Shown here: positions 1 through 27,174 of the stretch, in pieces
How positions within the stretch are numbered: position 1 is the first letter of the stretch
How the letters are laid out: every line of letters starts with the position of its first letter
DNA from: Pseudodesulfovibrio mercurii
GTDB lineage: Bacteria > Desulfobacterota > Desulfovibrionia > Desulfovibrionales > Desulfovibrionaceae
Length of the DNA: 32,000 nucleotides
Assembly (NCBI RefSeq): GCF_000189295.2
Contig: NC_016803.1
Coordinates: 210,001-242,000, forward strand
Reading direction: 5' to 3'
The notes under the pieces: generated by a model
Seen by the model: only the letters and a program-made list of their open reading frames with translations
What the model was told of the DNA's origin: nothing
The model's database searches: none
Translations under genes and position numbers: made by a program

Positions 1-501
1 AGACCCACGGAGCTCGGGGGCACTCTCAAAGAAAGCGGGGGGGACATAGTACGTCACCTTGGCGAGCCACCAGAAGCCTCCGTCCGAGGAATCCGTGGAC
101 TCCGCGATCATTGCGTCGGCGAGGCCCATGCAGATGGCGGGATACAAATGAGGCGGGTAATCGCTGAGGACGGCCTCGTCCGAATCAATGACCACGTTCT
201 TGAGGTATTGCTTGGCATCGTCGGGACCGATCTCGGTCAGGGGTTCGTCAATCTCGACGACGCCGATCCTGTAGGATTTGTCACCTGATTTCAGCGTGAT
301 GAGCACCGGTTGGTCGCGTTCGATCTCGGTTCTGAACTCGACTTGCGCCTTCAGAACGCCACGGAAGGTGATCTGTACCTCATCGTACATGGGCAAATCA
401 AGCTGTTTCAGGACGGTCGGCAGGGCCTCAAGGAGCATCGTGCTGTTGACGTAGTCACGTTTCCCCTGCCGTTTGAAAGTGTATCTCGCTACGTTGGACA
501 T
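1..501 (-). CDS. hypothetical protein (C-terminus cut by window edge)
   Basis: Not in the ORF track because it runs off the left edge. Hand translation of the minus strand from ATG at 501-499 gives MSNVARYTFKRQGKRDYVNSTMLLEALPTVLKQLDLPMYDEVQITF..., open to position 1. GGAGGG Shine-Dalgarno lies 5 nt upstream. It starts 24 nt after the stop of the AAC(3)-like gene, so it is the last visible gene of that operon. No family recognised. Confidence 0.6.
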   Translation of the reverse strand, partial: MSNVARYTFKRQGKRDYVNSTMLLEALPTVLKQLDLPMYDEVQITFRGVLKAQVEFRTEIERDQPVLITLKSGDKSYRIGVVEIDEPLTEIGPDDAKQYLKNVVIDSDEAVLSDYPPHLYPAICMGLADAMIAESTDSSDGGFWWLAKVTYYVPPAFFESAPELRGS

Positions 502-525
502 AAGTTCCCTCCGGGGTTGATCCGG

Positions 526-1329
526 TTACTTTTGATAGGGCCTCGAAGTCGGCAACACTCTCAGCCAGATGTATATATCCTTGGCCAGAATCTTGGTACA
601 CTCGTCGTAGAAATTCCTTGCGCCCACCGAATAGACAAAACCCTTGCCTATGGGGGCCTTCAGTATGCTGGTTCCCCTTTTCTTCAGCTCTTCGACGATC
701 TTCCTCACCCCATCGCGTTTGAGGCCGCAGTGCTCGTACCAGACGTGCCTGTAAAAGGGCTGGATGGAGACTTCGCCGTTGATCGAGATCGGGTGCATGT
801 ACTCTTTCGTATACCTGTAGGGAACCCCCATGACATGTTCGACATGGTGGATCAGGGCCATGTTGCGGATGTCCTTCCCGAGACAGACGCAGAGCCCATC
901 CAGCTCCACCACGCGGGCTTCCGGCGTCTCCGGCCCGAAGGCGTGGCGGGACACGTCCTTGCAGATGTAGTCGGCGTTTTTGCCGATGGCGGTGTAGGAG
1001 ACGAAGGGGTGGAAGCTGCGCACGGCCTCCGGTTTCCGGCGGATGTATTCCGTGAGCAGGCCGGTTTCGCTCGGCGTGTTGTCCGGGTCGTACGGGATAT
1101 CCGTGTTGCACAGGGACAAGGACGCCGTGGGGACGACCAGGGTTCCCTGCTTCAAGTCGATAAGCTCGCTCAGGGCATTGAAATGCGCTTCGAGGATGCT
1201 GTTGCGATCCCGTTTTTCGTAAGGGCCCAGCCGGAGCAGGTCGGTTCTTAGGATGACCGTTGCGCCCCGGCGGACTCCAACGGTGCTGTAGGCTTCAATC
1301 AGGTCGTCGTATGTATAGGGTTTATTCAT
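526..1329 (-). CDS. AAC(3)-family (Antibiotic_NAT-like) N-acetyltransferase homologue
   Basis: The ORF 526..1368 tail matches the aminoglycoside 3-N-acetyltransferase family layout: GTLVVPT, RSFHPFVSYTAIG, LDGLCVCLG, LIHHVEHVMGVPYR. The preferred start is ATG at 1329 (MNKPYTYDDL), 4 nt after the upstream stop at 1334 and preceded by GGGGAA. The longer track start would overlap the upstream gene. Confidence 0.75.
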   Translation of the reverse strand: MNKPYTYDDLIEAYSTVGVRRGATVILRTDLLRLGPYEKRDRNSILEAHFNALSELIDLKQGTLVVPTASLSLCNTDIPYDPDNTPSETGLLTEYIRRKPEAVRSFHPFVSYTAIGKNADYICKDVSRHAFGPETPEARVVELDGLCVCLGKDIRNMALIHHVEHVMGVPYRYTKEYMHPISINGEVSIQPFYRHVWYEHCGLKRDGVRKIVEELKKRGTSILKAPIGKGFVYSVGARNFYDECTKILAKDIYIWLRVLPTSRPYQK

Positions 1330-1333
1330 GGTA

Positions 1334-2080
1334 TTATTCCCCGGCAGCGCCAGTTTCCTTGTGAACAATCTTTCTGTATACGGCCTTGATTTTCGCCTTG
1401 ACGCTGTCCATGGAGAACAGTTTGCCCGTCAGGTAGGCGAGCTCCCAGCTCTTCCAGAATCTGCCGCCTTCCAGCTCCATCAGGCGCTTGTCGGCGCGCA
1501 GGTGCTCGACGTAGTCGGTGTAAAGGACTTTGATCGCCTGTGAATGAAAAATGATATACGGATGCGACAGGATGTCGATCTCGTTCAGCAACCGCGTCCA
1601 CTGGTCCAGGAAAAATGCATTGTTTTCCATTGAGGGACAAAAGGATGTCCATCCCTTGGCCTCGTAGGTCCAGTCGTATATCGACCCGCTCAGGATGCCT
1701 TCCAGGGAACCGTCCAGTCCCACGATGGGCACAAACGGATACATCTTGCACAGCAGCGGTTTGGGAAAGGACTCGGAGCAGCTGCCGTTCAGGCCGCAAT
1801 GCGCCGTGACAATGCGCAGGTCCTCATCCTCCCCGAAATCCATCCGCATCTCTTTGGCGGGGAGGTCCATATCCTCGATCCTGGACTTGAAGTAGTCATA
1901 CTCATCCCCCATGAAGATCAACGTCGTCCCGGAGGTCGGCAGCATGTTGAACGCAATGTCGTCCACCAGATTCATATTGCAGCAGGACCCGCCGCGACAG
2001 GAAAGCCAACATTGGGGCGTGGCGACAAATGATTGGGCGTGGAGTTCCGCCCACTGTTCCGGCGTCAATTTAGGCAGCAT
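1334..2080 (-). CDS. Cys-rich protein, YkgJ/UPF0153 (CxxCxxCC-type) putative metal-binding family-like
   Basis: ATG at 2080 with AGGAA upstream; overlaps the upstream stop by 11 nt. N-terminal Cys cluster CWLSCRGGSCC plus HCGLNGSCSESFPKPLLCKMYPFVP, which resembles the second C...C..y..RP..C..yPf block of the UPF0153 family. Function unknown. Confidence 0.55.
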   Translation of the reverse strand: MLPKLTPEQWAELHAQSFVATPQCWLSCRGGSCCNMNLVDDIAFNMLPTSGTTLIFMGDEYDYFKSRIEDMDLPAKEMRMDFGEDEDLRIVTAHCGLNGSCSESFPKPLLCKMYPFVPIVGLDGSLEGILSGSIYDWTYEAKGWTSFCPSMENNAFFLDQWTRLLNEIDILSHPYIIFHSQAIKVLYTDYVEHLRADKRLMELEGGRFWKSWELAYLTGKLFSMDSVKAKIKAVYRKIVHKETGAAGE

Positions 2081-3419
2081 GCTTTCCTACTCTTGTTACC
2101 CTGAAGCAGTCCTTGTAGGCCTGGGTGATCTCCAGAGAGGCAAACCCATCGTCGAAAAAAACGAAGCGGTTGGCAAGCTCCCTGAATGCTTCCAGGCTGA
2201 GGGCGGGCCATTTGGGGTTCAACTTGTCAGGTTGTGATTTCATCTTTCTGATTTGCCATTTCAGCATCCGGTTCCAGTGGCGAATTCGGGCGTCGAATCG
2301 CGTCCGCAAACTGAAAAACGGTTCCCTGGCGCGTTCCATTCGGGCCAGCGCCCGCAGGTGTTCCAGCACCAGCGGAGAGGACAGTTCCGCCCCGCTGCGA
2401 TGGGCGTACGGAGCCAGGACCTTTTCCCACTCGGGCCGCTTGGACCGGATCCGTTCATCCAATTCTCCCTCGACACAGCGGCAAAGCTCCTCAAAGTCGA
2501 GGATGTGGTACGAAATCTTGTTTGGCAAGCATTCATCCAGTTCCGATTGCACCGGTCGATAGCACACGCATGGAGTGCCCAGCAAGAAGGCCTCGATGGC
2601 CGTGGTGCAGCCGTTTTGCAGCATCAGGTCGCTGGCCAGGATCCACTTGTGCACGTTTCCTTCCCGGACGACGTGCAGGTTGGGATAGTCCCGCGCGAGT
2701 TCGAACCACGGCTCCAGCTTCTCGGCGGGGTGGGGCCGCAGGACGAAGTTTCGGGACGGGTACCGGACGCAGAGGCGCTTCAGCGAGTCGATCAAGGCGT
2801 AGAAGTACTGTTCATCGGCCTCGTAGCGTTTCATGAGGTATTCTATGTTCGGCCCGTGCTTGCCCGACAGGAACCGCTCCTTCATCGCCTCGCCGCCGAT
2901 GGTGTTGTTGTTGGTGGTGAAGCGCGTGTTGATCAGTATGAACCGGCCAAACGTGTCGTGTATGGCCCGGACGTCCCGTTCGTGAAATTTCCTGAGCCGG
3001 GGGTGGAGCAGGTCCAGCCTCGGATTGCCCGTGACGTGGGCGCGGTCGGCCATGTCCGGCAGACGGCTGACCATCAGATCCCTTTGCAGGGAGCCCCATG
3101 CGAAAAACATGTCCACGCTCTCCGAAACCGCCGGGGTCAGATTGAACAGGCTGTATTGCTTGGGATTGATGCAGAGGCCTTCTTCGTCGTTGACGGCGAT
3201 GCGATGTCCCAGCCGTTTCAGGAAGTTGAAGAGCGGGGGGTATTCCGAGTGGATGCTTTTGTCCAGGAGTATGCCGGGCTCTCCGAGGACGGCCAGCCGC
3301 CGGATCATGTCTTCGGCGCCGATATAGACATCAAAACCCTCCTGGGCCGCACAACAGGCCAGGAAAGTCTTCGCTTCGAGTTCGCGAGATGCTATTTCAA
3401 CCGTAATGTATAGATTCAA
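2070..3419 (-). CDS. surface carbohydrate biosynthesis protein-like (TIGR04396/capsule-biosynthesis-like), tentative
   Basis: 449 aa ORF. The N-terminus MNLYITVEIASRELEAKTFLA resembles the characteristic (I/V)E(I/V)..RE(L/F)..K..L start of that family as I recall it. Start is TTG at 3419 with AAGGAA 8 nt upstream, 5 nt after the stop of the preceding gene. The family call is from memory only. Confidence 0.55.
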   Translation of the reverse strand: MNLYITVEIASRELEAKTFLACCAAQEGFDVYIGAEDMIRRLAVLGEPGILLDKSIHSEYPPLFNFLKRLGHRIAVNDEEGLCINPKQYSLFNLTPAVSESVDMFFAWGSLQRDLMVSRLPDMADRAHVTGNPRLDLLHPRLRKFHERDVRAIHDTFGRFILINTRFTTNNNTIGGEAMKERFLSGKHGPNIEYLMKRYEADEQYFYALIDSLKRLCVRYPSRNFVLRPHPAEKLEPWFELARDYPNLHVVREGNVHKWILASDLMLQNGCTTAIEAFLLGTPCVCYRPVQSELDECLPNKISYHILDFEELCRCVEGELDERIRSKRPEWEKVLAPYAHRSGAELSSPLVLEHLRALARMERAREPFFSLRTRFDARIRHWNRMLKWQIRKMKSQPDKLNPKWPALSLEAFRELANRFVFFDDGFASLEITQAYKDCFRVTRVGKHAA

Positions 3420-3424
3420 TACAA

Positions 3425-4780
3425 TTATTCCTTGTGGTTGCGAAAGCTGCTTTCCGGTTCGCCGGGCTTCCCGTCAACGATGGGAATACGGTACGCGGAC
3501 GAATTGAAATAATTGTCGTTGGTGGCGAAGGCTATCGCTTCGAGGCTCCCCAGCGGGATGGAGTCGGCGTCGAAGGTGAAGCTCCAATGGTTGCCGTCCT
3601 GCCTGTCCATGTTCTCGTGCAGATACCGTTGATCCAGAGTCTTGAAGCTCATCCAGGGCTGCGGTCCCCAGATGTCCTTGTCGGCGCGGACGTCAACCCG
3701 GTTTCCGGTCCACGCAATGTCGAAGCGGACAGGGGACTGCTCGGGAACGCCGCAGACCCGCCGGACGGCATCGACGGCGTTGGCGTGGCGTATGCGGACC
3801 TCGGGGTACTGTTTCTGCACGTCCCGTATCAGGTCCATGTAGCGCGTGATGGGGGCGCCCATCTTGTTCTGGTCGTGGCTCGTGACGGACAGGATCGTCG
3901 GCTCGCCATTCCGAACCTGTCGGAACGCCCGCTCTATCTCCTCCCGCGTGATGGGGCGGATGCGGGCGTTCAGGTTGAGGCAACGGGCGATGTACCGCTT
4001 CATGCCCCCCGGTTTCTGGTAGTCGTACCAGTCGGGGTGGTAGACGCCCCACGTGGATTTCGCCCGGCGCCAGTCGCCGAACCTGCCGCCGCTCACATCC
4101 TTCTGGATGGCGTCCTCGGCGCGTTCGGGCATGGCCTGGTTGCCGAAATCGACGGGAATCCACATCTCGAGGAACAGGTGGATGTCGGGGCGTTCGCAAT
4201 GGAGTCCGGGCCGGAAGGCCGAGGGGAAATCCAGGTGGTCCAGCAGGCGGCGGCCGATGGATTCGATGTGGCAGTTGGTGAAGCTGTAATTGCAGGACGC
4301 CCTGTTGGCCGCATGGGAAAACGGCACCGGGTGAAAATGCCAATAGAGGGCATCGTGTTCCGGCGTGTATTCGCTCAGGATCTGTTGGTAATGCTCGTAG
4401 ACGGCATGGAATCCCAGGGCGCGCTGCCGGGGGTTCGTGGTGAATCCCACGTGGTCCATGACGAACCAGGAGAAGACGTATCCATTGCCGAAGTCGTCCG
4501 CGTGCCGCATGCGCCAGTCGTCCGACATCAGTTCATGAAGCATCGCATCGACTTCGGTCCAGGTGGCGTTGTAGTCGAGCCGCGCGTCGGAAACGAAATC
4601 CATGACGTTGGCCCGCAATGCCTCGGGGACGTCTTTTCCCGCCTTCAGGCGATTCAGCTGATTCGTCGAGGGCTTGAAGTTGAGACCGAATGTCTGTCTG
4701 ATCCGTTCGAAAGTCGCCGTCAAAGACTCATAGAGAGGACCTTCCGTATCAACGCAATGTACGAGGAATAGTTCTTTCAT
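3425..4780 (-). CDS. hypothetical protein (possibly carbohydrate deacetylase/hydrolase-fold; unverified)
   Basis: 451 aa ORF with ATG at 4780 (MKELFLVHCVDTEGPLYE...). It is the first gene of the five-gene minus-strand operon. Coding-like composition, no low-complexity stretches. No confident family assignment. Confidence 0.65.
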   Translation of the reverse strand: MKELFLVHCVDTEGPLYESLTATFERIRQTFGLNFKPSTNQLNRLKAGKDVPEALRANVMDFVSDARLDYNATWTEVDAMLHELMSDDWRMRHADDFGNGYVFSWFVMDHVGFTTNPRQRALGFHAVYEHYQQILSEYTPEHDALYWHFHPVPFSHAANRASCNYSFTNCHIESIGRRLLDHLDFPSAFRPGLHCERPDIHLFLEMWIPVDFGNQAMPERAEDAIQKDVSGGRFGDWRRAKSTWGVYHPDWYDYQKPGGMKRYIARCLNLNARIRPITREEIERAFRQVRNGEPTILSVTSHDQNKMGAPITRYMDLIRDVQKQYPEVRIRHANAVDAVRRVCGVPEQSPVRFDIAWTGNRVDVRADKDIWGPQPWMSFKTLDQRYLHENMDRQDGNHWSFTFDADSIPLGSLEAIAFATNDNYFNSSAYRIPIVDGKPGEPESSFRNHKE

Positions 4781-5366
4781 GGGAATTATACGCTTTGCGG
4801 GCGGGTTAAAATTGTATTCCGGATCGTTCGTGAACGGATTGCGGATGGTTGTCGGTCAGGGCGTTGTTGCCGGAGGGTATGCATTTTCGGGAGAGTCGAT
4901 GTTGCCATCTGAAATCGTAATGCATTGTGTGATCCCGGTGAACAGGTGATCGGGCAACGACGGAGAGCCTTCCAGGTATAATGTGATCCGGTACCGGCCT
5001 GCGCTCGGTTTTTCTCATAAAAACAGGCCATTCCATGAGGACCGGGATGGAGCCGAATACCAGCGGCGACTCTCCGGTCGGTTCGCCCCGATACGAGGGC
5101 GGTCTGGCCTCTGTCCGTTGCAATCGTGTGGAATGCGGTACTACCTTTGAGTTGTTCGGCGATGGAAAAATTGTTGAACAACCTTACTCGCAATGCGTCA
5201 ACGCGAACGTTGATCGAAAACTGCTTCTAATTTTCTTCGAAGTCAATACCCCCCGGATTCGGATTCAACAAATCCGATGTGATAGGGGCGGCTTCCCTCA
5301 TGTCGTCGATCGGACAACGGCGTTTCCGCGCCTTGGCCGAAGGCGGGGGGCCTGATCGACCCGATA

Positions 5367-7061
5367 TCATTCAGCCAATCGGGCCAGCAGGGCCTTTCTG
5401 TCGACCTTTCCGTTTGCATTGAGGGGCATGGTCTCGACCTGGTAAAACCGTTTGACCTGCATGTACGTCGGCAGGTTCTCCTTGCAGACCGCGTCGAGGT
5501 CCGTTTCCGGGCTGCCGCTGTAAAAGACTAGTATTTCATACGGAATGTCCGGGGTGGGCCTATGGCCGATGGCGACCAGATGCTCCAGGCGGGCCGATTT
5601 CCGCAAGAGATGCTCGATCTCCCCCAATTCGACCCGGTGTCCCGCGATCTGGATCTGGTCATCGATCCTGCCGATGAAGACAATGTCGCCGTTCGCGTCG
5701 AGCCGGGCAAGGTCGCCGGTGCGGTACCAACGGTTGTCCTGTTCGCGGGCCGAGGTGTTCAGGGGACAGAATTTGGTGTTCGTGAGGCCGGGATTGCGCC
5801 AATAGCCCGGGGCGAGTTGCGGACCCGCGAGGCACAGTTCTCCGACCTCCCCGTCGGCAACGGGCTTCAGGTTCGGATCGACGATCGCGGCCTCCAGGCC
5901 GGGGAGGGGCTTCCCGATGGGCACGATCCCCTTGTACTCCGCGCCGAGTTCCGTGCCCGGCGAGTAAGTGTAATAGGTGAAATACACGGTGGCTTCGGTG
6001 GGCCCGTAGAGATTCTCGAGAATCGCGTTGGGGGCGGCCAGGGCAAAGTCCCTGGCGGAGCTTTCCAGCAGGGCTTCGCCGCAGAAGAGGGCGAGCCGCA
6101 GGTGCGGAAGGCTGTCGGGCTTGAGCAGTTTGAACTTGGAAAGAAAAACGGCCACGGCCGGAACCGAAAACCAGACGGAGAGCTTGTGCTTGTTGACGAA
6201 ACGATGGGGCAGCATCATTTCGCCTTTGGGGACGCAGAAGATCGAGCCGCCCACGGTCAGGGGCACGAAGATGTCGAATACGGAGAGATCGAAAGTGAAA
6301 TCGAAGAGTTGGGTGAACGAATCTTCCTGATTGAACTGGTATCGGTCGATGGAAGCGGCGATCATGCTGAGGGCGTTGCGGTGCGTGATGCCGACACCCT
6401 TCGGGTCTCCCGTGCTGCCGGAGGTGAAGAGAAGATAGGCGATGTCGCCGGGATCGACCGTCGGCATGCCGAGCGGGGCGTCCTCGGCGGACAGGGCCTT
6501 GAGCCGCGACTCGGGGATGCTCGTGAGCGAAATCTGATCGGGGATGTGCAACCCCTCTTCATGTTCGCCGAGCACGATGATCGAATGGCTTTCGTCCGAT
6601 TCGGCGAGCAGTTCCAGCAGGGAGGCAAGGTGCGCGCCGTCGGTCAGGATGATTTTCGTGCCCGCTTTGGCGATGGTGTTCTGGACGCGTTTTTGCGGGA
6701 AGATCGGACTGAGGGGGACATAGCAATGCCCGGACAGGAGGGCGGCGAGAATGGCCGAGTACATGTGGATCGAGCGGTAGGCGTATATCCCGATCTGCCT
6801 GCTGTCGTTGTCCTTCCCAAGTATCTCATGGGCGATGCATTGAACGCGGGACGCCAATTCCCTGTAGGTATAGGGCGTGTCGTCCACAAAAAGGGCGAGA
6901 TTATCGGGATATGAATCGGCGCTTCTGATGAAGCCGCTGATGAGGGAGTCGGTTTTCAAGATGGATACCCTGGTTTTTCGGTCCGCAGGATGCGTGTGGT
7001 TTTTCACTCGGATCCCAATCGAAAGCCTGGATTTGGTACCAAGAGGACAATCGGCCGTCAA
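5367..7061 (-). CDS. stand-alone adenylate-forming enzyme (DltA-like / NRPS A-domain-like AMP-dependent ligase)
   Basis: Core adenylation motifs are present: LFTSGSTGDPKGV, YGPTE, YRTGDLARLDANGDIVFIGRIDDQIQIAGHRVELGEIE, LNANGKVDRKAL. The track start at 7061 is TTG and there is no in-frame ATG near the N-terminus. GTG at 7007 or TTG at 6959 are alternatives, so the true start is uncertain. Confidence 0.85.
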   Translation of the reverse strand: MTADCPLGTKSRLSIGIRVKNHTHPADRKTRVSILKTDSLISGFIRSADSYPDNLALFVDDTPYTYRELASRVQCIAHEILGKDNDSRQIGIYAYRSIHMYSAILAALLSGHCYVPLSPIFPQKRVQNTIAKAGTKIILTDGAHLASLLELLAESDESHSIIVLGEHEEGLHIPDQISLTSIPESRLKALSAEDAPLGMPTVDPGDIAYLLFTSGSTGDPKGVGITHRNALSMIAASIDRYQFNQEDSFTQLFDFTFDLSVFDIFVPLTVGGSIFCVPKGEMMLPHRFVNKHKLSVWFSVPAVAVFLSKFKLLKPDSLPHLRLALFCGEALLESSARDFALAAPNAILENLYGPTEATVYFTYYTYSPGTELGAEYKGIVPIGKPLPGLEAAIVDPNLKPVADGEVGELCLAGPQLAPGYWRNPGLTNTKFCPLNTSAREQDNRWYRTGDLARLDANGDIVFIGRIDDQIQIAGHRVELGEIEHLLRKSARLEHLVAIGHRPTPDIPYEILVFYSGSPETDLDAVCKENLPTYMQVKRFYQVETMPLNANGKVDRKALLARLAE

Positions 7062-7162: not shown

Positions 7163-8524
7163 TCAGCCGTTGAAAAGGGGATCACCCGTGCCCAGATCCC
7201 GAAGCCGCAGACAATCGCGGTGGAAGAGCAATTCAATCTTGCCGCAGAGCCCGTAACGGTTCTTGGCGACGTGAACATCCACACCGTCCGTCAAGGATTC
7301 ATCGCCTTCGTAATATTCGGCATCCCTGTAGAGCAGCAGGATGGTATCCGCGGCCTGTTCATAGGCTCCATGGCAAAGGAGGTCCGACAGTTTCGGCTCG
7401 TTGTCCTGGCGCTCATCCACTTCGGAATTGAGTTCCGACAAAACAAGGATGGAGATGTTCAACTCGGAAGCCAGATGTTTCAGTGCCCGAGAGATTGCGG
7501 CAGCTTCCTGCTCCAGACCGCCCGCCGGATGCTCCATGTCTTTTATCAGCTGCACACGGTCGATGACGACAAGGCCGATGTCATGTTCGTTTTTCATGTG
7601 CCTGATGCGCGAGGATATCTCAAATGGAGACAACGCCGGGGCGCTGTCGAAAAACAAACCGCTTCGGGATATCCTGCCGGCGGATTTGTACAGTTCAAGC
7701 CAGTCGTCTTCAACGAGTTGTCCCGTTTGTATCTTCATGATCGGGATACCCACATGTATCGCAAGCAGCTTTTCCATTATCCGGTCATGATGCTTGTCGA
7801 GTGAAACATAAAATGTAGGGACGTTTGACAACGCTGCCTTCAGAACAACATTGAGCGCAAAGGGTTGTATGCAGTTGCCTGGCCGTCCCGCGAGGACCGT
7901 CAGGCTTCCTTTTCTCAAGCCCGACAGCAGGGAGTCCAAATCCTCGAATCCCGTCTTGAGTCCCGGCCCCGCATTACCCTGTTTGAATTTGCTGTTAATG
8001 GTGTCAAGGACAGACATTATGACTTCACTCGCTGCTGGTTTGTCGAAGGTTTTGGTCTTTCGTTTGAGCTCGAATAGTTCTTTTTCAGCCTCATTCAACG
8101 TGACCAGCGGAGCCTGAGAATTGTACGCCATGGTTGCTATCTTATTACCTAATTGGATAAGGCTGCGCAGAGTTGCCTTGTCCCGGACCTGTTCGGCGTA
8201 TTTTACTATGTCGCGAGGCGACAATGAACCGCCCTCAGGTGTGCAGGTATGTAAATACTCCCTGAGACAAATGTTCCGATTTTCCGCCTCCACGGCCGTT
8301 TGGACAGTATTCGCGTCAATGGGTTCGTTGTTGTCGTAACACGTTGTCATCGCAGCGAATATGGCCCCATGGTCGGGATGGTAGAAGGATTGTCGATTCA
8401 ATAAATCAATAATCTCATGGAATATCGCATTGTTTCGCAGTACACCTTCAAGCACGGCGTGTTCGGCGAGCAGGTCGAATGGCGGGATTTTCCCGTGGGC
8501 CAAGCTTTCAAAATCCATCGGCAT
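7163..8524 (-). CDS. DnaB-family replicative-helicase paralogue with degenerate ATPase motifs
   Basis: DnaB N-terminal-domain-like AEHAVLEGVLRNNAIFHEIIDLLNRQSFYHPDHGAIFAAM, and a C-terminal RecA-like domain with VVIDRVQLI. The start is chosen at ATG 8524 (MPMDFESL...) with AGGAG 6 nt upstream (ACGACAGGAGATCAACATG). The track start at 8716 adds 64 non-conserved residues. The Walker A position reads GRPGNCIQPF, with no GKT. Confidence 0.8.
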   Translation of the reverse strand: MPMDFESLAHGKIPPFDLLAEHAVLEGVLRNNAIFHEIIDLLNRQSFYHPDHGAIFAAMTTCYDNNEPIDANTVQTAVEAENRNICLREYLHTCTPEGGSLSPRDIVKYAEQVRDKATLRSLIQLGNKIATMAYNSQAPLVTLNEAEKELFELKRKTKTFDKPAASEVIMSVLDTINSKFKQGNAGPGLKTGFEDLDSLLSGLRKGSLTVLAGRPGNCIQPFALNVVLKAALSNVPTFYVSLDKHHDRIMEKLLAIHVGIPIMKIQTGQLVEDDWLELYKSAGRISRSGLFFDSAPALSPFEISSRIRHMKNEHDIGLVVIDRVQLIKDMEHPAGGLEQEAAAISRALKHLASELNISILVLSELNSEVDERQDNEPKLSDLLCHGAYEQAADTILLLYRDAEYYEGDESLTDGVDVHVAKNRYGLCGKIELLFHRDCLRLRDLGTGDPLFNG

Positions 8525-8613
8525 GTTGATCTCCTGTCGTGATGCGTCCAACGGCTCGTTCGAGGAGCACGTTGTTGGGCCTATGAACGACAGGTTAGCC
8601 ACTACGTGGGGCG

Positions 8614-8652
8614 TTTCGGGCCCCACAAAAAAAGTTTTTTGTGGGGCCGAAA
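8614..8652. promoter_or_regulatory. long near-perfect inverted repeat / hairpin in the divergent intergenic region
   Basis: GGCCCCACAAAAAA (8619-8632), AG, then TTTTTTGTGGGGCC (8635-8648): perfect 14 bp arms. It extends to TTTC..GAAA (8614-8652) with one bulged G. There is no flanking U-tract, so it is not a canonical terminator. Confidence 0.5.
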
Positions 8653-8739
8653 TCGCCTCAGTTGGTCTGTATGATCCAATCCGGCAAATCCATGGAAGCA
8701 TCGGCATGGTTGTCACCTGCCGGGTAACCGGACATGCGC

Positions 8740-8948: not shown

Positions 8949-9914
8949 ATGGGCAGAGGTTTGGAGAGATTTTTTATTGATGATCTGAATGCCGGGAAAC
9001 TGGTGCCTGTTTTGGAACGGGTGAAGAAAGACCATACGTTGGATCTACAAATCCGCAATAACGAAATCCATGTATACTACCGTGGCGGCAAACTTGTAGG
9101 CATTGCGCCGAAATCCTCCGCATATTCCTATGACGTTTCATTTGATAAAAGCTATCTCAATGATTTTCATTTGGATATCCCCTTGGTGCCCCCCATAACA
9201 AATGTACAAACAGCAAATGAATGTGTCGCGCAATTCCAATCCATGAAGTTGGCCATGGATTATAACTTTTCCAAATACAAAAAAACCGAGCGCGAGTTCC
9301 AACAATTGATTTCTCGCGAGAACAGCTACTCTTCGGTATCAAACGCTACGGACTATTTCGTCGTGGATGTGGAGTTCGAGAAGAATGTGGGTGCCGTCAC
9401 GACGAAGTTTGATGTGATGGCGATAAAATGGGTGAGCACTTCCGGGGCGCGGAAACTCTCCAAGGGGTACAGGCCGAAGTTGGCGATTGTCGAAGTGAAG
9501 TATGGCGACAGCGCGTTGACGGGGGCTGCGGGGCTGGTTGACCATCTTGAAAAGACCTGTTCCTGTCTGCGGGATCAACGGGTCGCCGAAGACATCAAGG
9601 CGACGATTCTGACCCAGTTCAACCAGAAGCGGGAGCTTGGGCTCGTCCTCTTCTCAAAGGGGGGGAACACAAACGAAGTCGTTGCGCTTGATGACCGGCC
9701 CGAATTTATCTTTCTGCTTGCCAATCACGACCCGGCGTCCACCACTTTGGCCACTGAACTTGCATCCGATGCATTCAAGACGGCATTTGCGGAGCTGCGG
9801 CAATATGCGGATATCCGTTTCGCAATATCGTCCTTCATGGGCTATGGGCTGTTCGAGGAGTGCCTTTTGGACGTGAACGAATTCAAATCAACCTTGGCAA
9901 GGCAGTCCGCCTGA
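8949..9914 (+). CDS. hypothetical protein with PD-(D/E)xK-nuclease-like core (predicted)
   Basis: ATG at 8949 with GAGG upstream; 321 aa. Candidate restriction-endonuclease-fold signature: TEREFQ (E) ... KFDVMAIKW (D), 24 residues, then KLAIVEVKYG (E-x-K). No named family recognised. The stop TGA 9912-9914 overlaps the next ATG. Confidence 0.6.
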   Translation: MGRGLERFFIDDLNAGKLVPVLERVKKDHTLDLQIRNNEIHVYYRGGKLVGIAPKSSAYSYDVSFDKSYLNDFHLDIPLVPPITNVQTANECVAQFQSMKLAMDYNFSKYKKTEREFQQLISRENSYSSVSNATDYFVVDVEFEKNVGAVTTKFDVMAIKWVSTSGARKLSKGYRPKLAIVEVKYGDSALTGAAGLVDHLEKTCSCLRDQRVAEDIKATILTQFNQKRELGLVLFSKGGNTNEVVALDDRPEFIFLLANHDPASTTLATELASDAFKTAFAELRQYADIRFAISSFMGYGLFEECLLDVNEFKSTLARQSA

Positions 9915-11167
9915 TGCGTATAACCATCCACCGCGGGACCAACGAGATCGGCGGCAGTTGTGTCGAAGTCGAATACAACGGCACTCGGCTCCTGCTTGAT
10001 GCCGGAACGCCTCTTGATGATTCCCCGGCCGCACTTCCCGCCGACATCGACGCCTATGCGGGCGTGCTGATTTCACACAGCCATCAGGACCACTACGGAT
10101 TGGTCGAAAGATTGCCGGAAGATGTCCCTCTGTACATGGGGAAGGTCGCCTGGCAGTTCGCGCAAAGCCTGAGGCTCTTTACGAAGACCGGCGATTTGCT
10201 GACGCACAATCCCATCCCTTTGGAAGCTGGTAAAACGTTTCGGGTTGGAGATATCTCCGTCACTCCATACCTGGCCGACCATTCCTCTCCCGATGCCTTT
10301 GGTTTCCTGCTGGAGGCGGGAGGGCGCGTCGTCTACTACACCGGCGATTTTCGCGCTCACGGGAGAAAGTCCAAGACCTTCGACTACCTGTGTTCCCGTC
10401 TGCCGAGGAAAATGGACGCCATCCTTCTTGAAGGGACCATGATGGATCGAGGGAATTCTGCGTTCGCCAGTGAGCGTGAAGTGGAAGAAGGCATGGTCGA
10501 AGCCATTCGTGCGGAAAGCGGAATAGTGTGCCTCAATTGTTCGGCTCAGAATATCGACCGGATGGTTTCCGCATTCCGCGCCGCCAAGCGGTCCGGCAGA
10601 ATCCTTGTCGTGGACATCTACACGGCGTGGATCCTGAGGTTGGCCCAACAGCTATCAGCCAACATCCCCGACATCAATTGGGACGGCATGCGCGTGCTTT
10701 CCCATAACAGGCCCGCGGCCGGGTACTATCGCAATGTGAAGGAGCACGCCGAGTTCTTTGGCGGCTTCCTCCAGGACCTCTACAACTCCGGGAATGAGCT
10801 TTGGGTGCAGAACCTCGTTGATTCTCCGTCGAAATATCTCATCAAGTTGAGTGATTACTGGCTGGCCGACATCCTCGACAGGCTTCCCGGGATATCCTCG
10901 ACCATCATCTATTCGCAGTGGGCCGGATATCTTGAGGAGGGGACGCCGCAGTACAATGCAAAAGCGGCCAGCCTGAAGGGGCGCGAGAACTCGACGTTCA
11001 GGCTGATCCATACCAGCGGACACGCCGTGCGCGAGGACTTGATGCGGCTGGTCGGTTCCGTCGAGCCTCAAACGGTCATTCCGCTCCATACCGAGCACAA
11101 GAACGCGTATGCGGAGTATTTCCCCAATGTTCATGTCCTGGATGACGGGGAAGTTTTCGAACTTTAG
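9914..11167 (+). CDS. beta-CASP-type metallo-beta-lactamase-fold nuclease
   Basis: ATG at 9914 (MRITIHRGTNEIGGSCVEVEYNGTRLLLDAGT) shares one base with the preceding stop (TGATG). MBL motifs: LLLDAG, ISHSHQDHYG (HxHxDH), YLADHS, YYTGDF. Beta-CASP-like motifs: LLEGTMMD, HTSGHA, VIPLHTEH, resembling RNase J/CPSF/Artemis-type enzymes. Confidence 0.85.
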   Translation: MRITIHRGTNEIGGSCVEVEYNGTRLLLDAGTPLDDSPAALPADIDAYAGVLISHSHQDHYGLVERLPEDVPLYMGKVAWQFAQSLRLFTKTGDLLTHNPIPLEAGKTFRVGDISVTPYLADHSSPDAFGFLLEAGGRVVYYTGDFRAHGRKSKTFDYLCSRLPRKMDAILLEGTMMDRGNSAFASEREVEEGMVEAIRAESGIVCLNCSAQNIDRMVSAFRAAKRSGRILVVDIYTAWILRLAQQLSANIPDINWDGMRVLSHNRPAAGYYRNVKEHAEFFGGFLQDLYNSGNELWVQNLVDSPSKYLIKLSDYWLADILDRLPGISSTIIYSQWAGYLEEGTPQYNAKAASLKGRENSTFRLIHTSGHAVREDLMRLVGSVEPQTVIPLHTEHKNAYAEYFPNVHVLDDGEVFEL

Positions 11168-11182
11168 CTACATGGCGGCAGA

Positions 11183-12178
11183 ATGCGCGGGACACAGATA
11201 ATTCAGCTTTTCAAGGGCATCCAGGCCCTGAGCAAGACCAACGGCACGACCATCAATGAGCTCATGGAAGTGCTCGGCAGGAACGACAGGAAAGCGGCCT
11301 ACCGCATGCTCGAGACCATTCAGGGGATCGGTGTGCCGGTGTATGAAGAAAAAATACATGGCCAGCGCGCCAAGAGATGGAAAATCGATGAGACTTCCCG
11401 GCAAAAGCTGGCCGGATTGAACCTGCCCGACTTCACCATATCGCTTCCCGACATCGTTGCCCTTCAATTGCTGCGGTCTCAAGCCACGGTATTCAAAGGA
11501 ACGGAAATTGAGACCACTCTCAATCGGCTGTTTTCGCGGCTCGATGCATTTGTGCCGGAAGGGTTGTTCGCCTCGTTGAGCAAGCTGGGGCCTTTGTTCG
11601 GGTCTTCCAATAAATGGGCGAAAGACTATTCGGGGAAGGAGGGCATACTGGATTCGCTTGTCGAAGCCATGCTCGAGCGCAGGACCTGCCTCGTCAGGTA
11701 TCACTCCTTTCAACAGGGCAGGGAGACGCGGTTCAAGATTGATCCGTTGTATTTCTTTGAATACTCGGGCGGCTTGTATCTTTTCGTCAGGACAACCGCC
11801 TATGACGACATCCGGATTCTGGCCCTTGAACGGGTTCGGGAGGTCGCCCCGACCAGTGACGGATTCGAGGAGCCGAAGGACTTCGATGCTCGGGCCCGGC
11901 TCAGCGAACCGTTCGGCATCATAGCCGATGACCCCATAGAAGCGACGGTTCGCGTGTCGGCCGATCAAGCCCGGTACTTACTGGAGCGCCCGTATTTTCG
12001 AGAACGGGTCGTGGCGGAGGAATCGGATGGCGCGGTCATCGTCCAATTGAACACCTCCGGCCGTCACGACGTTGTCAAATGGATACTCTCGTTGGGATCG
12101 CAGGCGGAAGTGCTTGGACCGCCCGAACTCAGGGCTGATGTGAAGAAAGAGCTTGAAGCGACGTTGTCGGGGTACTGA
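11183..12178 (+). CDS. WYL-domain transcriptional regulator (wHTH-WYL-WCX architecture)
   Basis: N-terminal winged HTH (TINELMEVLGRNDRKAAYRMLETIQGIGVPVYEE). Central WYL-like block (CLVRYHSFQQGRETRFKIDPLYFFEYSGGLYLFV). C-terminal extension. ATG lies 15 nt after the MBL stop. Confidence 0.85.
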   Translation: MRGTQIIQLFKGIQALSKTNGTTINELMEVLGRNDRKAAYRMLETIQGIGVPVYEEKIHGQRAKRWKIDETSRQKLAGLNLPDFTISLPDIVALQLLRSQATVFKGTEIETTLNRLFSRLDAFVPEGLFASLSKLGPLFGSSNKWAKDYSGKEGILDSLVEAMLERRTCLVRYHSFQQGRETRFKIDPLYFFEYSGGLYLFVRTTAYDDIRILALERVREVAPTSDGFEEPKDFDARARLSEPFGIIADDPIEATVRVSADQARYLLERPYFRERVVAEESDGAVIVQLNTSGRHDVVKWILSLGSQAEVLGPPELRADVKKELEATLSGY

Positions 12179-12265
12179 TTCCCGAGAGGCGCACTGCACG
12201 TCCGAGCAAAAGGTCCGCAAAAACGAAAAAGGATTCGCCGAGTTGTCCTAACCCCTTGCCTTTTC

Positions 12266-12318
12266 TGGGCGGGAGGAGAGGCTTTGAACCCCCGATCTAT
12301 GGGGCCCGAGCGGGATGC
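12266..12318 (-). pseudogene. decayed 3' half of a tRNA-Pro-like gene (no 5' half present)
   Basis: 12269-12314 aligns without gaps to 27101-27146 of the intact tRNA-Pro with 36/46 identities, including TGG(CCA end), the T arm GGTTCAAAG and GATCT. The anticodon stem is no longer complementary. No CCTCCCG partner for the acceptor stem is found upstream. Confidence 0.55.
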
Positions 12319-12518
12319 TTTTCGTGTCTCCTTGTAATGATTAAGTTTATTCGTCACATGGGAAATACCCATAAACCGGATCCCAAATGCGACAAGACAT
12401 GTGACGGAAACCATTCTCGTGGTTTTGGGGGGAGTTTGATGTGTGGGGATACCGTGAGTGCCGTTCCTCCTTGGTGGGGGCAAATGATTTGAGCGATTCC
12501 TTCTTGAAATGTCCCGGG

Positions 12519-12992
12519 ATGCCCATTGCGAGAAGCCTAACGAATGAAGATGTAACGCATGTTCTGGCTGCTCTGTTTACGACGAGAGAACAGCCAGACT
12601 ATCTGCGATCCGACAACGGCTCCGAGTTCGCGGCTGAAGCCCTCTGCGGATGGTTGAAGGATGTCGGAGTCAATACTGCATCCATTAAACCCGGTAGCCC
12701 TGGGGAGAATGGCTATAGCGAAAGCTTCAATGGCAAATTGCCGGAGGGATGGATTCACGGAGAGCTTCTCTGTTCGTTGAAAGAAGCACAGATCGTGATC
12801 GAAAATCGGCGGCGGGAATACGACACGATAAGGCCTCACGGCTCATTGGAATACCAACCCCCAGCGTCGGTCGCGCCCCTCGGGGTGGAGTTGGGCTCGG
12901 GCTGGACAACCTCGGCAGGAAGAGTGCAGACTGGCATAAGCCCGGACCATAAACCGGGGACAGGTCAACATGTGGACGGTTTTTGTCTGTGA
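12519..12992 (+). mobile_element. truncated IS transposase (C-terminal part of an rve/DDE integrase core, IS3-family-like), pseudogene
   Basis: DYLRSDNGSEFAAEALCGWLKDVGVNTASIKPGSPGENGYSESFNGKL...EAQIVIENRRREYDTIRPHGSLEYQPPA matches the second-D to E region and the YN..RPH tail of DDE transposases. The HTH and first catalytic D region are absent. Conserved positions are eroded (SPGENGY where I recall SPWENGY in this motif). Confidence 0.7.
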
Positions 12993-14125
12993 AGAAGATT
13001 CGTGTCATTGTGAACGCGATCCCATTGATGAACGTGAAGACGGGGATCGGACGGTACGTTGAATCGCTGTACTCGACGATGGAGAGACAGTATTCGGATC
13101 TGTTCGAGTTCCGCTATTTCGACGGCGTCGGTGCCGCAAGTTCCCTTCCCTCCGGGGCACGGGACCTTGACCACTGGTCCTCGAAGGCCGCCTTGTTCTG
13201 GAAACTGCCGCCGTCGCTATCGTTTCTGATCCGGCTGGCCCTGCACCACGTGCGCGAACGCAGGCTGCTGTCCCTGTCAAGGAAGTTCGACGTCTACCAC
13301 GAGACGGCCATGTTCCCCTTTCGCGTGCAGGATGGCGTGGCCACGCTGCTGACCGTGCATGATCTTTCCCTGGAGCGATATCCGCAGTTCCATCCCGCCG
13401 AGCGGGTTCGCTATTTCAACAGATTTTTCGGCAAACGGCTGCGCCTGGCCGACGCGTTCGTGTCGGTTTCGGACTTTACCCGCCATGAGCTGCTGTCCGC
13501 GCACGACCTGGATTCGAGGACCGTCGCGGTGACGCCGCTGGCCTGCGACAAGGACCTGTTCCACCACCGTCAGGGGGAAGAAGTCGAGGCGGTCAAGCGG
13601 GAGCTCGGCATACGCGGGGACTACTTCCTGTCCGTCGGCACGAACGACCCCAGGAAGAACCTCCCCCTCATCTTCGAGGCCGTTCACGGGAGCCCGGACA
13701 CGCAGATGGTCATCGCGGGCTGGTCCGGTTGGGGCGGAAAGCTCCCCGGGGGAGTTCGCGATGTGGGCTATGTCTCCGACCAGACCCTTGCCTGCCTCTA
13801 CAGCGGGGCCACGGCCCTGGTCTATCCCAGCCTCTACGAGGGGTTCGGCCTGCCGGTGCTGGAGGCCATGTCCTGCGGCTGTCCCGTTGTCCTGACCCGG
13901 GAGGCCAGCCTGCCCGAGGTGGCCGGGGAGGCCGGTTGCTACCTGAGCGGCCCCCGCGCCGTGGAGGAGCTCGTCTCCATCATGGAGCGGCTCGGGACGG
14001 ATGAAGCGTTCCGCCGGGAGAAGTCGGCCGCGTCCCTGGAACGGGCCGAACTCTTCTCCTGGGAGCGGACAGCGCTGCTGACCAAGGAGGCCATCCTGGC
14101 CGCCTACAGGGCGAAGCACCCGTGA
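12989..14125 (+). CDS. glycosyltransferase family 4 (GT1-superfamily)
   Basis: C-terminal signature [23 protein letters not shown]. The N-terminus KKIRVIVNAIP is typical. The track start at 12983 is TTG; GTG at 12989 (MKKIRV) is preferred. Confidence 0.85.
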   Translation: MKKIRVIVNAIPLMNVKTGIGRYVESLYSTMERQYSDLFEFRYFDGVGAASSLPSGARDLDHWSSKAALFWKLPPSLSFLIRLALHHVRERRLLSLSRKFDVYHETAMFPFRVQDGVATLLTVHDLSLERYPQFHPAERVRYFNRFFGKRLRLADAFVSVSDFTRHELLSAHDLDSRTVAVTPLACDKDLFHHRQGEEVEAVKRELGIRGDYFLSVGTNDPRKNLPLIFEAVHGSPDTQMVIAGWSGWGGKLPGGVRDVGYVSDQTLACLYSGATALVYPSLYEGFGLPVLEAMSCGCPVVLTREASLPEVAGEAGCYLSGPRAVEELVSIMERLGTDEAFRREKSAASLERAELFSWERTALLTKEAILAAYRAKHP

Positions 14126-14129
14126 CGGT

Positions 14130-15407
14130 CTACCCCATCCTTCGCAAGCGCATCTTGTTCAGCGAGAACTCTCCGCTCTTGTTGCCGGTCCGCAGGACAA
14201 ACTCGAACTTCGTCAGGTCGCGGTAGGCGATGAAGTCGTATTCGTTCCGGCCCGGGGTCAGGTGCAGCGATTCGACCTTGTAGCCGAAGCGTTCGCTGAT
14301 ATCGAGATCAAAGGAGCCGTTGATTTCGCCGTCGATGGTCAGCCGATAGGCTCCCCTGGGCAGATACCAGTACGGACCGTGGAAGAGTATATCGCCCTCG
14401 CGGCGGTCCCTGGCCTGCGAACGGTATGCTCCGTTTTCCATGCCGCCATTGAGGATGTTGAAATCGCACGGGAAAATATCAACGAAGTTTCTTTCGAGCC
14501 CGCCTTCCTCGATCCGTTCCGGGCGTCCGGCCAGGAAATACCCTCCGGTGGTCGTGAACTCGGCGTGGTCGGTCCGCCGGATGGTCGTCCCCGCAATGGC
14601 GTAGATCTGGTAGCCGAGGGAACCGAGCAGCTCGAACAGATCGTCGGCGATGTCGCTGTCGGCCGCCAGCTTTTCGAAGAGGAGAACCGCTTTCGGGGAT
14701 CTTTCAAGCACGGGGAGCATGCCGGTCAGGGCCTTGAGCTCATGGCCTTCGACGTCGAGTTTGATCATGCTGACGCTCGTGCCTTCGGGCAGGACGCTGT
14801 CGAGGGTGCGGACCTGGACCACGTCGCCGTTGCCGTCGCCGCCTTCGAGACTTCCCCCGCCGGCGTGGTCCTTGGGCAGCGACAGGCTGGCTTCGCCGTC
14901 GCGGTTGGAGATGGCGCAGCTGTTGATGTCGATGATGTGCGTGTACCCATTCAGAAAGACGGAGCGCGAAAACAGCTGCCGGATCCTGTCGTTGGGCTCA
15001 AAGGCGTGAATCCTGCCCTGGCGGAGATACGGCGCCAGCCGGAGAGAGTAGACCCCGAGGTTCGCCCCCACGTCCAGGGCGATCCCGTCGGGCGTGCGGT
15101 AGGAAAGAAATACTCCCCATTCTTCCTCTTCATACATGCCGCCGTTGATGAAGTTGAGCGGGCAGCCGATGTCGTCCGTGTTCACGAAGATCGGCGTCTC
15201 ATCCTTCAGGTAGGTCAGCGATTCATTCCTGCCCAGATAGGACGACGTCCGGTTCTTGATGAAATCGACGTCGTTCAATATCCGGTCGAGCTTCCGTTCC
15301 ACTTCGTTCTGCCACATCGTTTGAATAATACTCACCGCATCTTCCTGTTCTTTAAGGTTTTCGTTTATTGTGTCATGCCCGGCCCGGAGCCATCGCCCCG
15401 ACCGCAT
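14130..15407 (-). CDS. FkbM-family SAM-dependent methyltransferase with extra C-terminal domain
   Basis: ALDVGANLGVYSL (SAM-binding glycine loop), IHAFEPN, IKLDVEGHELKAL: typical FkbM/TIGR01444 motifs. About 150 further residues follow (HGPYWYLPRGAYRL...). The start is uncertain: ATG 15407, GTG 15335 with AGGAAG upstream, or ATG 15317. Confidence 0.8.
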   Translation of the reverse strand: MRSGRWLRAGHDTINENLKEQEDAVSIIQTMWQNEVERKLDRILNDVDFIKNRTSSYLGRNESLTYLKDETPIFVNTDDIGCPLNFINGGMYEEEEWGVFLSYRTPDGIALDVGANLGVYSLRLAPYLRQGRIHAFEPNDRIRQLFSRSVFLNGYTHIIDINSCAISNRDGEASLSLPKDHAGGGSLEGGDGNGDVVQVRTLDSVLPEGTSVSMIKLDVEGHELKALTGMLPVLERSPKAVLLFEKLAADSDIADDLFELLGSLGYQIYAIAGTTIRRTDHAEFTTTGGYFLAGRPERIEEGGLERNFVDIFPCDFNILNGGMENGAYRSQARDRREGDILFHGPYWYLPRGAYRLTIDGEINGSFDLDISERFGYKVESLHLTPGRNEYDFIAYRDLTKFEFVLRTGNKSGEFSLNKMRLRRMG

Positions 15408-15436
15408 CGAAGCGGCGGGCGACGGGCCGCATGCCG

Positions 15437-16714: not shown

Positions 16715-16766
16715 TTCGAGTCCATGGTGCAGCCATGCGGGATATCCACTTGGTGCGGCCGGATTC

Positions 16767-18256: not shown

Positions 18257-18273
18257 GTAACAATGCCAAGTTA

Positions 18274-20040: not shown

Positions 20041-20071
20041 GCTCTGTTTTTATGTTTGAAGTTGCCGGTTT

Positions 20072-27097: not shown

Positions 27098-27174
27098 TGG
27101 TCGGGATGAGAGGATTTGAACCTCCGATCTCTGCGTCCCGAACGCAGCGCTCTACCAGACTGAGCCACATCCCG
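27098..27174 (-). tRNA. tRNA-Pro (anticodon CGG)
   Basis: The reverse complement folds as a cloverleaf: CGGGATG TG GCTC AGTCTGGTA GAGC G CTGCG TTCGGGA CGCAG AGATC GGAGG TTCAAAT CCTCT CATCCCG A CCA. It has the C1-G72 pair and A73 typical of bacterial tRNA-Pro, and an encoded CCA. Confidence 0.9.

Follow-up and report, generated by a model that had tools for sequence, protein, structure and literature searches.

A predicted, very rare DnaB-family pseudo-helicase on a decayed tRNA-Pro(CGG) island of Pseudodesulfovibrio mercurii

Catalytically dead paralogues are known inside ATPase rings, as with the delta-prime subunit (HolB) of the clamp loader, and Walker A mutants of DnaB and of T7 gp4 are dominant-negative. 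DnaB itself is among the most conserved of bacterial enzymes. Its family is defined by the motifs H1, H1a, H2, H3 and H4, of which H1 to H3 line the nucleotide pocket and H4 has been implicated in DNA binding (PMC1950529), and in the G. stearothermophilus protein (Bst DnaB) K216 is the P-loop lysine and R420 the trans-acting arginine finger (PMC12214026). In the literature that we searched on inactive or pseudo DnaB and on heterohexamer poisoning, no DnaB paralogue that is inactive in nature was described. Here we analyse a 32,000-nucleotide stretch of the Pseudodesulfovibrio mercurii genome (contig NC_016803.1, positions 210,001 to 242,000; hereafter the window, whose own coordinates are used unless another locus is named) and, within it, a minus-strand open reading frame (ORF) at 7163..8524 which encodes a DnaB-family protein of 453 residues. 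Judged from its sequence, the gene is a real, cleanly documented and very rare predicted pseudo-helicase, that is, a full-length DnaB which appears to lack both the ATPase site and the DNA loop and yet to have evolved under purifying selection.

Fold and motifs of the DnaB-like protein

The reading frame is intact and ends in a TGA stop codon, and an AGGAG ribosome-binding site (8531..8535, minus strand), which is kept in the closest relative, lies 6 nt upstream of the ATG. Gene calls made independently on two Logan contigs from this organism gave an identical 453-residue product. An initial annotation of this DNA, made from the letters and a list of ORFs, had already reported an intact frame with an AGGAG site, and all of the peptides and DNA strings quoted in it were found. 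Its G+C counts for two 60-base stretches, one inside the gene (26/60) and one in the flank (44/60), were likewise exact, and the genomic island that carries the gene has a G+C content of 0.52-0.55 compared with 0.58-0.63 in the flanks.

The protein is divided into an N-terminal domain, a linker helix and a RecA-like C-terminal domain. Pfam recognises both the DnaB N-terminal domain (PF00772, 7.8e-18) and DnaB_C (PF03796, 6.5e-62), and PHROG 19 is matched at 3.6e-67. The alignment with Bst DnaB (2r6a) covers the full length (E = 5.7e-61), and end-to-end alignments with the solved DnaB structures 2r6a, 6bbm and 2q6t fall between E = 1e-59 and 1e-61. An AlphaFold model made with 62 sequences (predicted local distance difference test, pLDDT, 85.5) gave template-modelling (TM) scores of 0.78-0.83 against the E. 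coli, V. cholerae and Bst DnaB chains. The product of 7163..8524 is therefore predicted to have the complete DnaB fold. Its score against TIGR00665 is 317.2 bits, under the equivalog cut-off of 385.25, and all 15 of the full-length DnaB-family NCBIfam models that it matches (13 equivalogs together with the phage and SPI-7 types) score below their own cut-offs.

Four of the five motifs by which the DnaB family is defined are broken. Residues are numbered here as in Bst DnaB, using an alignment which reproduces the published K216 and R420, and all of the motifs lie on the minus strand. The Walker A motif, H1, reads AGRPGNCIQP (7862..7891) in place of the canonical ARPSMGKTAF, with the glycine, lysine and threonine all gone (G215C, K216I, T217Q). 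In H1a, SLDK (7793..7804) stands where SLEM is canonical, the catalytic glutamate having been replaced by aspartate (E241D). The gamma-phosphate-sensing glutamine of H3 has become glutamate (Q362E; LSEL at 7430..7441, canonical LSQL), and alignment with canonical DnaB shows R365S to be a further change in this motif. The H4 or DNA-binding loop, SDLLCHGAYEQAAD (7346..7387; canonical SDLRESGAIEQDAD), carries R381L, E382C, S383H and D389A, such that SDLRESG...EQDAD has become SDLLCHG...EQAAD, with G384, E387, Q388 and D391 kept. Walker B, or H2, reads VVIDRVQL (7547..7570) and retains its aspartate, D320, although the tyrosine that follows, which is 99% conserved, is an arginine (Y321R). Also kept is the beta-hairpin AKNRYG (7250..7267), equivalent to K418 and R420 of the Bst protein and hence to the trans-acting arginine finger; this hairpin is present both in the window protein and in its one close homologue, P0002. 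Further residues retained in the window protein are R211, P212, Q323, K347 and G422. The overall pattern is one in which the residues expected to act in cis in the ATPase site and to bind DNA in the central channel are lost, whereas the Walker B aspartate and the trans-acting lysine and arginine finger are kept.

The initial annotation had described a DnaB paralogue without catalytic residues in which a Walker B-like VVIDRVQLI survives. The alignment agrees on both counts, confirming the losses in Walker A, at the H1a glutamate and in H4 as well as the presence of D320. The substitutions listed there were right, but the list omitted Y321R and R365S and made no mention of the retention of K418 and R420.

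How unusual these changes are can be seen from the rest of the family. Among 60 near-invariant columns, defined as those at least 90% conserved across 127 canonical DnaB representatives, 19 are changed in the window protein; in canonical DnaBs the mean is 1.8 and the maximum 7. In a set of 378 other DnaB-family proteins the P-loop lysine is present in every one, the glycine in 376 and the H1a catalytic glutamate in 377, with P0002 as the sole exception, so that variation of the catalytic glutamate is confined to this lineage. P0002 is also the only one of the 378 with multiple deviations at key residues. Sixteen viral DnaB homologues, which are equally divergent (25-31% identity), keep all of the P-loop, catalytic and arginine-finger residues that were checked, their sole deviation being a conservative Glu-to-Asp change at DNA-loop position 382 in 5 of the 16. 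Because equally divergent viral homologues and canonical DnaBs keep these residues, the losses in the window protein exceed ordinary divergence.

The same comparison bears on the idea that the protein is still an active helicase or nucleoside triphosphatase, replicative or accessory, that works with a non-canonical active site. Such an enzyme would account for the complete fold, for the surviving Walker B aspartate and arginine finger, and for the P-loop lysine that P0002 retains. We nevertheless regard it as exceedingly improbable, given that the P-loop lysine, glycine and threonine are gone from the window protein and that the catalytic glutamate, the H3 glutamine and the arginine and glutamate of the DNA loop are replaced. 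These residues are 99-100% conserved in the 378 family members and are kept in phage homologues that have diverged just as far, and the protein falls short of every NCBIfam DnaB cut-off.

Relatives and selection

A word-indexed search of 5.8 billion proteins returned a single close homologue. This is P0002 (62% identity), which is encoded on a 3.52-Mb contig of an uncultured Pseudodesulfovibrio and is publicly annotated as a 'DnaB-like helicase C-terminal domain-containing protein'; all other matches were at most 36% identical. In an exhaustive HMMER search across 1.84 billion representatives a single intermediate emerged, P0121 (382 bits), below which there is a background at about 300 bits led by the housekeeping DnaBs of Desulfovibrionales. 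Close relatives were found neither in IMG/VR (identity at most 31%) nor among plasmids and phages (best identity 34%), and GTDB genome contigs and JGI metagenomes yielded no relatives.

P0002 shares G215C, E241D, Q362E, R381L, D389A, Y321R and other changes with the window protein. Its Walker A motif reads GRPGNCKRA, in which the lysine is kept and the glycine and threonine are lost, and its H1a motif reads SLDT, the catalytic glutamate again being aspartate. P0121, the nearest intact relative, has all of its DnaB motifs. The three proteins form a clade with 95% neighbour-joining bootstrap support, within which the two dead copies sit at the end of a long stem. P0121 sits among unannotated genes on an unclassified contig of 6.7 kb (L004), which we infer to be a mobile element. 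Directly downstream of it, at the contig end (L004 5942-6688), is a second DnaB_C-like ORF without an N-terminal domain. Here GKT is present, and SMKLS replaces SLEMS, so that the catalytic glutamate has become lysine; this ORF looks like another degenerate paralogue of the same mobile-element lineage.

The window and P0002 genes align over 453 codons without a gap, and neither copy contains a stop, frameshift or indel. Non-synonymous divergence (dN) is 0.233 and synonymous divergence (dS) 1.23, giving a dN/dS of 0.19 (pN 0.20 vs pS 0.61), values which come from a single sequence pair whose synonymous sites are near saturation and whose genomes differ in G+C. Since the inactivating substitutions are common to both copies, constraint appears to have acted after catalysis was lost. 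These data place the inactivating changes before the divergence of the two copies and show that both have since been under purifying selection. The gap-free frames, the shared substitutions and the low dN/dS all agree with the remark in the initial annotation that this is not an obvious pseudogene. Two neighbouring genes, which encode a beta-CASP nuclease and a WYL regulator and are described below, have lower dN/dS values between the same loci (0.06 and 0.07, respectively). With P0121 as outgroup, 43 lineage-specific changes fall on the window copy compared with 29 on P0002 (p about 0.05-0.1), which argues for mild extra relaxation of the window copy and not for neutrality.

Conservation extends upstream of the gene. 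The non-coding leader or promoter region (8525..8690, minus strand; about 170 nt) is roughly 85% identical to positions 9845-10000 of L001, the locus of P0002, with one 2-nt indel, compared with 71-77% identity for coding DNA.

These data allow us to assess whether the gene is simply a functionless relic, namely the helicase of an island in decay that is itself turning into a pseudogene. In that case the apparent constraint would be weak, a residue of the past or an artefact of the small sample of two sequences. The lineage is extremely rare, the island in the window has no mobility or replication genes, and dN is twice that of the neighbouring genes. Moreover, the P-loop lysine has been lost in the window copy alone, which also bears the excess of lineage-specific changes. 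All of this is as a relic would predict. On the other hand, dN/dS is 0.19 and both frames have stayed free of stops, frameshifts and indels despite a dS above 1, the shared inactivating substitutions imply that both lineages were constrained after catalysis was lost, and the ribosome-binding site and 170-nt upstream region are better conserved than the coding DNA. The rate asymmetry is also far too mild for neutral evolution of one copy. We therefore think it quite unlikely that the gene is no more than a relic.

The tRNA-Pro(CGG) island and its cargo

In L001 the gene lies on an 11.5-kb island between tRNA-Pro(CGG) (5126-5202) and a 67-nt direct repeat of the 3′ part of that tRNA (16656-16722). 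The island begins with a WYL regulator gene, a beta-CASP nuclease gene and three small unknown genes, and these are followed, in divergent orientation, by the DnaB-like gene and a gene for a 154-residue protein. Next come genes for an HTH_36 protein and an HTH_17 excisionase-like protein, two unknown genes and a tyrosine integrase gene. The HTH_36 protein matches phage O-like replication initiators (PHROG E = 1.6e-12); a search for viral relatives of this initiator found none. The 154-residue gene (L001 11421-11885), which has no family match, directly follows the DnaB-like gene, with which it shares its strand, and is a possible operon partner for it. The tRNA-Pro(CGG) is a reused integration hotspot, in that L001 contains the tRNA and two further partial repeats (16656-16722 and 19459-19512), an arrangement which suggests tandem or successive islands.

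The organisation in the window is different. The intact tRNA-Pro(CGG), which is the integration target, is at 27098..27174 (minus strand), and the chemotaxis operon found beside the tRNA in L001 is syntenic with 27.4-32 kb of the window. A degenerate copy of the 3′ half of the tRNA (12253..12298, minus strand; 89% over 46 nt) adjoins the WYL gene and marks an old att end, at a position whose equivalent in L001 holds the intact tRNA. Between this half-site and the tRNA there are about 14.8 kb, comprising an insertion sequence (IS) remnant and a glycosylation cluster. Homology between the window and L001 breaks off precisely where the DnaB-like gene has its stop codon, and the island copy in the window contains no integrase, excisionase or replication initiator. 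Because the att half-site is degenerate, 14.8 kb have been interposed and the mobility and initiator genes are gone, the window appears to hold an old, decayed copy of the island that was moved away from its tRNA by later insertions. The DnaB-like gene would then be part of a lineage of integrative islands whose target is tRNA-Pro(CGG). The initial annotation had offered a mobile-element leftover as one of its options, and this is well supported by the half-site at 12253-12298 together with the intact island of L001. Synonymous divergence between the two loci is 0.75-0.86 (pS) for backbone che genes compared with 0.60-0.67 for island genes, figures which are confounded by the difference in G+C. 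Vertical inheritance of the island with its host was considered and rejected as unproven, the same G+C difference between the genomes confounding the comparison.

Divergently oriented from the DnaB-like gene is a cassette of three genes. The first (8949..9914, plus strand) encodes a 321-residue protein and is, on present evidence, not part of the pseudo-helicase unit. This protein has no match in Pfam, PADLOC, NCBIfam or PHROG, no homology was found between it and the product of a 325-residue gene in the same slot of L001, and a single-sequence AlphaFold model (pLDDT 34.6) was unusable. It carries an IVEVK motif that resembles those of PD-(D/E)xK nucleases. The second gene (9914..11167, plus strand) encodes an MBL-fold beta-CASP (RNase J-like) nuclease of 417 residues, 82% identical in L001, and its start codon (ATG at 9914) shares 1 nt with the stop codon of the preceding gene. 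The third (11183..12178, plus strand) encodes a WYL-WCX transcription regulator of the PafBC/DriD/BrxR type (wHTH-WYL-WCX), which is 80% identical in L001.

The initial annotation had proposed a functional link between the pseudo-helicase and this cassette at 8949-12178. In its strongest form, this would make the DnaB-like protein a working part of a defence-type system along with the 321-residue, beta-CASP and WYL proteins, for example as a decoy which senses phage loaders or replication proteins and licenses the nuclease. Several points keep the link open. The divergent adjacency is kept in both known loci, and the DnaB-like, beta-CASP and WYL genes have been retained together despite the loss of the integrase, excisionase and initiator. 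The intergenic region from which the DnaB-like gene and the cassette diverge contains a conserved palindrome, upstream of the former, and no DNA-binding protein other than the WYL regulator is shared by the two loci. Relatives of the beta-CASP protein sit in defence-island-like neighbourhoods with AbiE, HigBA and Fic genes, and WYL regulators frequently accompany defence systems (PMC9122601).

The distribution of the genes nevertheless argues against such a system. In Desulfovibrio sp. JC022 (L005/L006 9036-11254), homologues of the 321-residue (60%) and beta-CASP (64%) proteins are paired in a different mobilizable element, which has integrase, AlpA, DUF3987, MobC and relaxase genes but no DnaB-like gene and no adjacent WYL gene. 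Because the pair recurs without a DnaB-like gene, a functional link between the latter and the cassette is not supported. At another locus (L007 9129-11254) a beta-CASP homologue (62%) follows an unrelated 283-residue gene, and in L001 the slot between the DnaB-like and beta-CASP genes is filled by three genes unrelated to the 321-residue gene of the window. The beta-CASP family has more than 3,700 matches, compared with two members for the DnaB-like lineage, and the rate at which the DnaB-like gene evolves is two to three times that of the beta-CASP and WYL genes. PADLOC-DB 2.0 contains no match for the DnaB-like, 321-residue or beta-CASP proteins, the WYL regulator being the sole match. The co-occurrence of DnaB-like gene and cassette is limited to two copies of one island lineage, which falls short of the recurrent association that the initial annotation had suggested looking for. 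Overall, we consider membership of a defence-type system unlikely. The cassette is better viewed as independent cargo, with its adjacency to the DnaB-like gene reflecting inherited island synteny in two genomes, and the 321-residue and beta-CASP genes form a mobile two-gene module that is a candidate for an uncharacterised defence-like module. In JC022 this pair adjoins PDDEXK_4, Fic and HigBA genes.

The remaining features of the window lie outside the island. A truncated rve-family transposase ORF (12441-12992; 183 residues, with rve_3 and partial rve domains) marks the place where the old island gives way to the later insertion. It is followed by a surface-glycan cluster (12983-22558) which includes several GT4 and GT9 glycosyltransferases, an FkbM methyltransferase and an ABC transporter ATPase, and which also encodes an 828-residue protein with an STT3/PglB oligosaccharyltransferase core domain. 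At the other end of the window, an AMP-binding enzyme gene (5367-7061, minus strand) is preceded upstream by four ORFs of 248-451 residues without a Pfam match at E <= 0.001 (310-1251, plus strand; 1334-2080, 2070-3419 and 3425-4780, minus strand). These four ORFs are not syntenic with the flank of the relative.

Possible mode of action and comparison with known systems

The upstream region offers a clue to how the DnaB-like gene might be controlled. It contains a palindrome (8607..8660) with 26-nt arms, a 2-nt spacer and an A/T-rich centre, centred about 110 nt upstream of the ATG and conserved in L001 at 9856-9919, which is a candidate operator. Rfam gave no significant match for it. An exact-pattern scan of genome contigs for further copies produced 5 matches in unrelated phyla, and these were rejected as chance since, on our estimate, about four chance matches are predicted for 19 specified bases in both strands of 596 billion bases. 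The palindrome could be an operator, perhaps a WYL site, but it could also be an origin or an RNA hairpin. Inverted repeats are bound by WYL regulators of the BrxR family, whose genes commonly have repeats of at least 20 bp upstream (PMC9122601). The WYL regulator DriD activates a cell-cycle inhibitor upon DNA damage (PMC9186387).

The interpretation that we favour, and to which we would give roughly an even chance, is that the protein was formerly the replicative helicase of the island and has become a non-enzymatic mimic of DnaB. It would most likely act through the DnaB surfaces that it retains, namely the N-terminal collar, the subunit interface and the arginine finger. The mimic might co-assemble with, or cap, an active DnaB ring belonging to the host or to an invading element; alternatively, it might titrate a partner of DnaB such as the loader or primase. 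By either route helicase activity would be blocked or redirected. The roles of loader decoy and replication sensor that the initial annotation suggested are speculative. The palindrome at 8607-8660 is probably the operator of the gene, the island WYL regulator is the obvious candidate for its repressor or activator, and expression would be conditional, for example on DNA damage or infection. A protein whose own nucleotide site is destroyed and whose trans-acting finger is kept would show the pattern expected of a subunit that docks on active neighbours. There are precedents for the effects of such subunits. Walker A mutations in E. coli dnaB are dominant-lethal, the T7 gp4 ring is reportedly poisoned by a single dead subunit, and the Ban protein of phage P1 co-assembles with host DnaB. 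On these precedents, a regulated dead DnaB would be expected to act as a potent blocker and possibly as an adaptor.

Various observations weigh against this interpretation. The lineage is known from two genomes only, and the selection estimates rest on one pair for that reason. Conservation is lowest in the region of the linker helix, on which ring assembly depends (40% identity for the two copies, 14% against the canonical consensus). The window lacks the 154-residue gene that lies downstream in the relative. In addition, the window copy has lost the P-loop lysine and its island partners and evolves slightly faster, and for these reasons it may be sliding towards decay. Finally, the 120 matches listed in a Desulfovibrionales DnaB profile search for the canonical dnaB of the host were all from other taxa.

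A more specific version of the mimic hypothesis is correspondingly more doubtful, and we consider it unlikely. Here the mobile island would keep a dead DnaB as a replication poison or decoy, switched by the WYL regulator via the palindrome in response to DNA damage or infection, which arrests replication by capping or co-assembling with an active replicative helicase, either that of the host or that of an invading phage, or by trapping its loader. If this were the case, the protein would be a pseudo-enzyme effector of a new class, used where mobile elements, hosts and phages are in conflict. Even the more general proposal, that the protein docks on helicase rings or their partners, would if true show how mobile elements interfere with replication and would provide a ready-made dominant-negative probe of DnaB assembly. 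Because the known distribution is two genomes, the general importance of the gene will be limited unless a function is shown.

Comparison with known systems helps to place the protein. Mobile-element DnaBs (of the P22 gp12 and P1 Ban type, TIGR03600, the SPI-7-type NF040583 and PHROG 19) are likewise encoded by integrative elements, and the DnaB-like gene of the relative is close to a phage O-type initiator, as in mobile-element helicase modules. These enzymes are catalytically intact, however, whereas the window protein is predicted to be dead and has no close relative among phages, plasmids or IMG/VR (best 31-34%). Genes under WYL control, as in BrxR-BREX, CapW-CBASS and DriD-didA, provide a second parallel, since here too a WYL regulator is encoded, on the same island, and a long conserved inverted repeat lies in the promoter region of the DnaB-like gene. 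In the window, unlike in the BrxR, CapW and DriD cases, the WYL gene occupies the distal end of the opposite operon and the palindrome is only a candidate site, and a dead helicase has not been described as a regulated gene for this family of regulators. With canonical DnaB (E. coli; G. stearothermophilus 2R6A and 4ESV) the protein shares its length, three-part architecture, Walker B aspartate and K418/R420 finger. It differs in that the H1 GKT, H1a glutamate, H3 glutamine and H4 Arg-Glu-Ser are replaced, and in that the gene lies on a horizontally acquired tRNA-Pro island as opposed to the housekeeping context of canonical dnaB. A functional analogy can also be drawn with delta-prime (HolB) and with the Walker A mutants of DnaB and gp4. 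There are clear differences here as well, because delta-prime is an AAA+ protein without homology to the RecA-type window protein, and the Walker A mutants are laboratory constructs which are not naturally maintained. What the window protein would have in common with both is a nucleotide site of its own that is destroyed, within a fold that is kept together with its trans-acting arginine finger.

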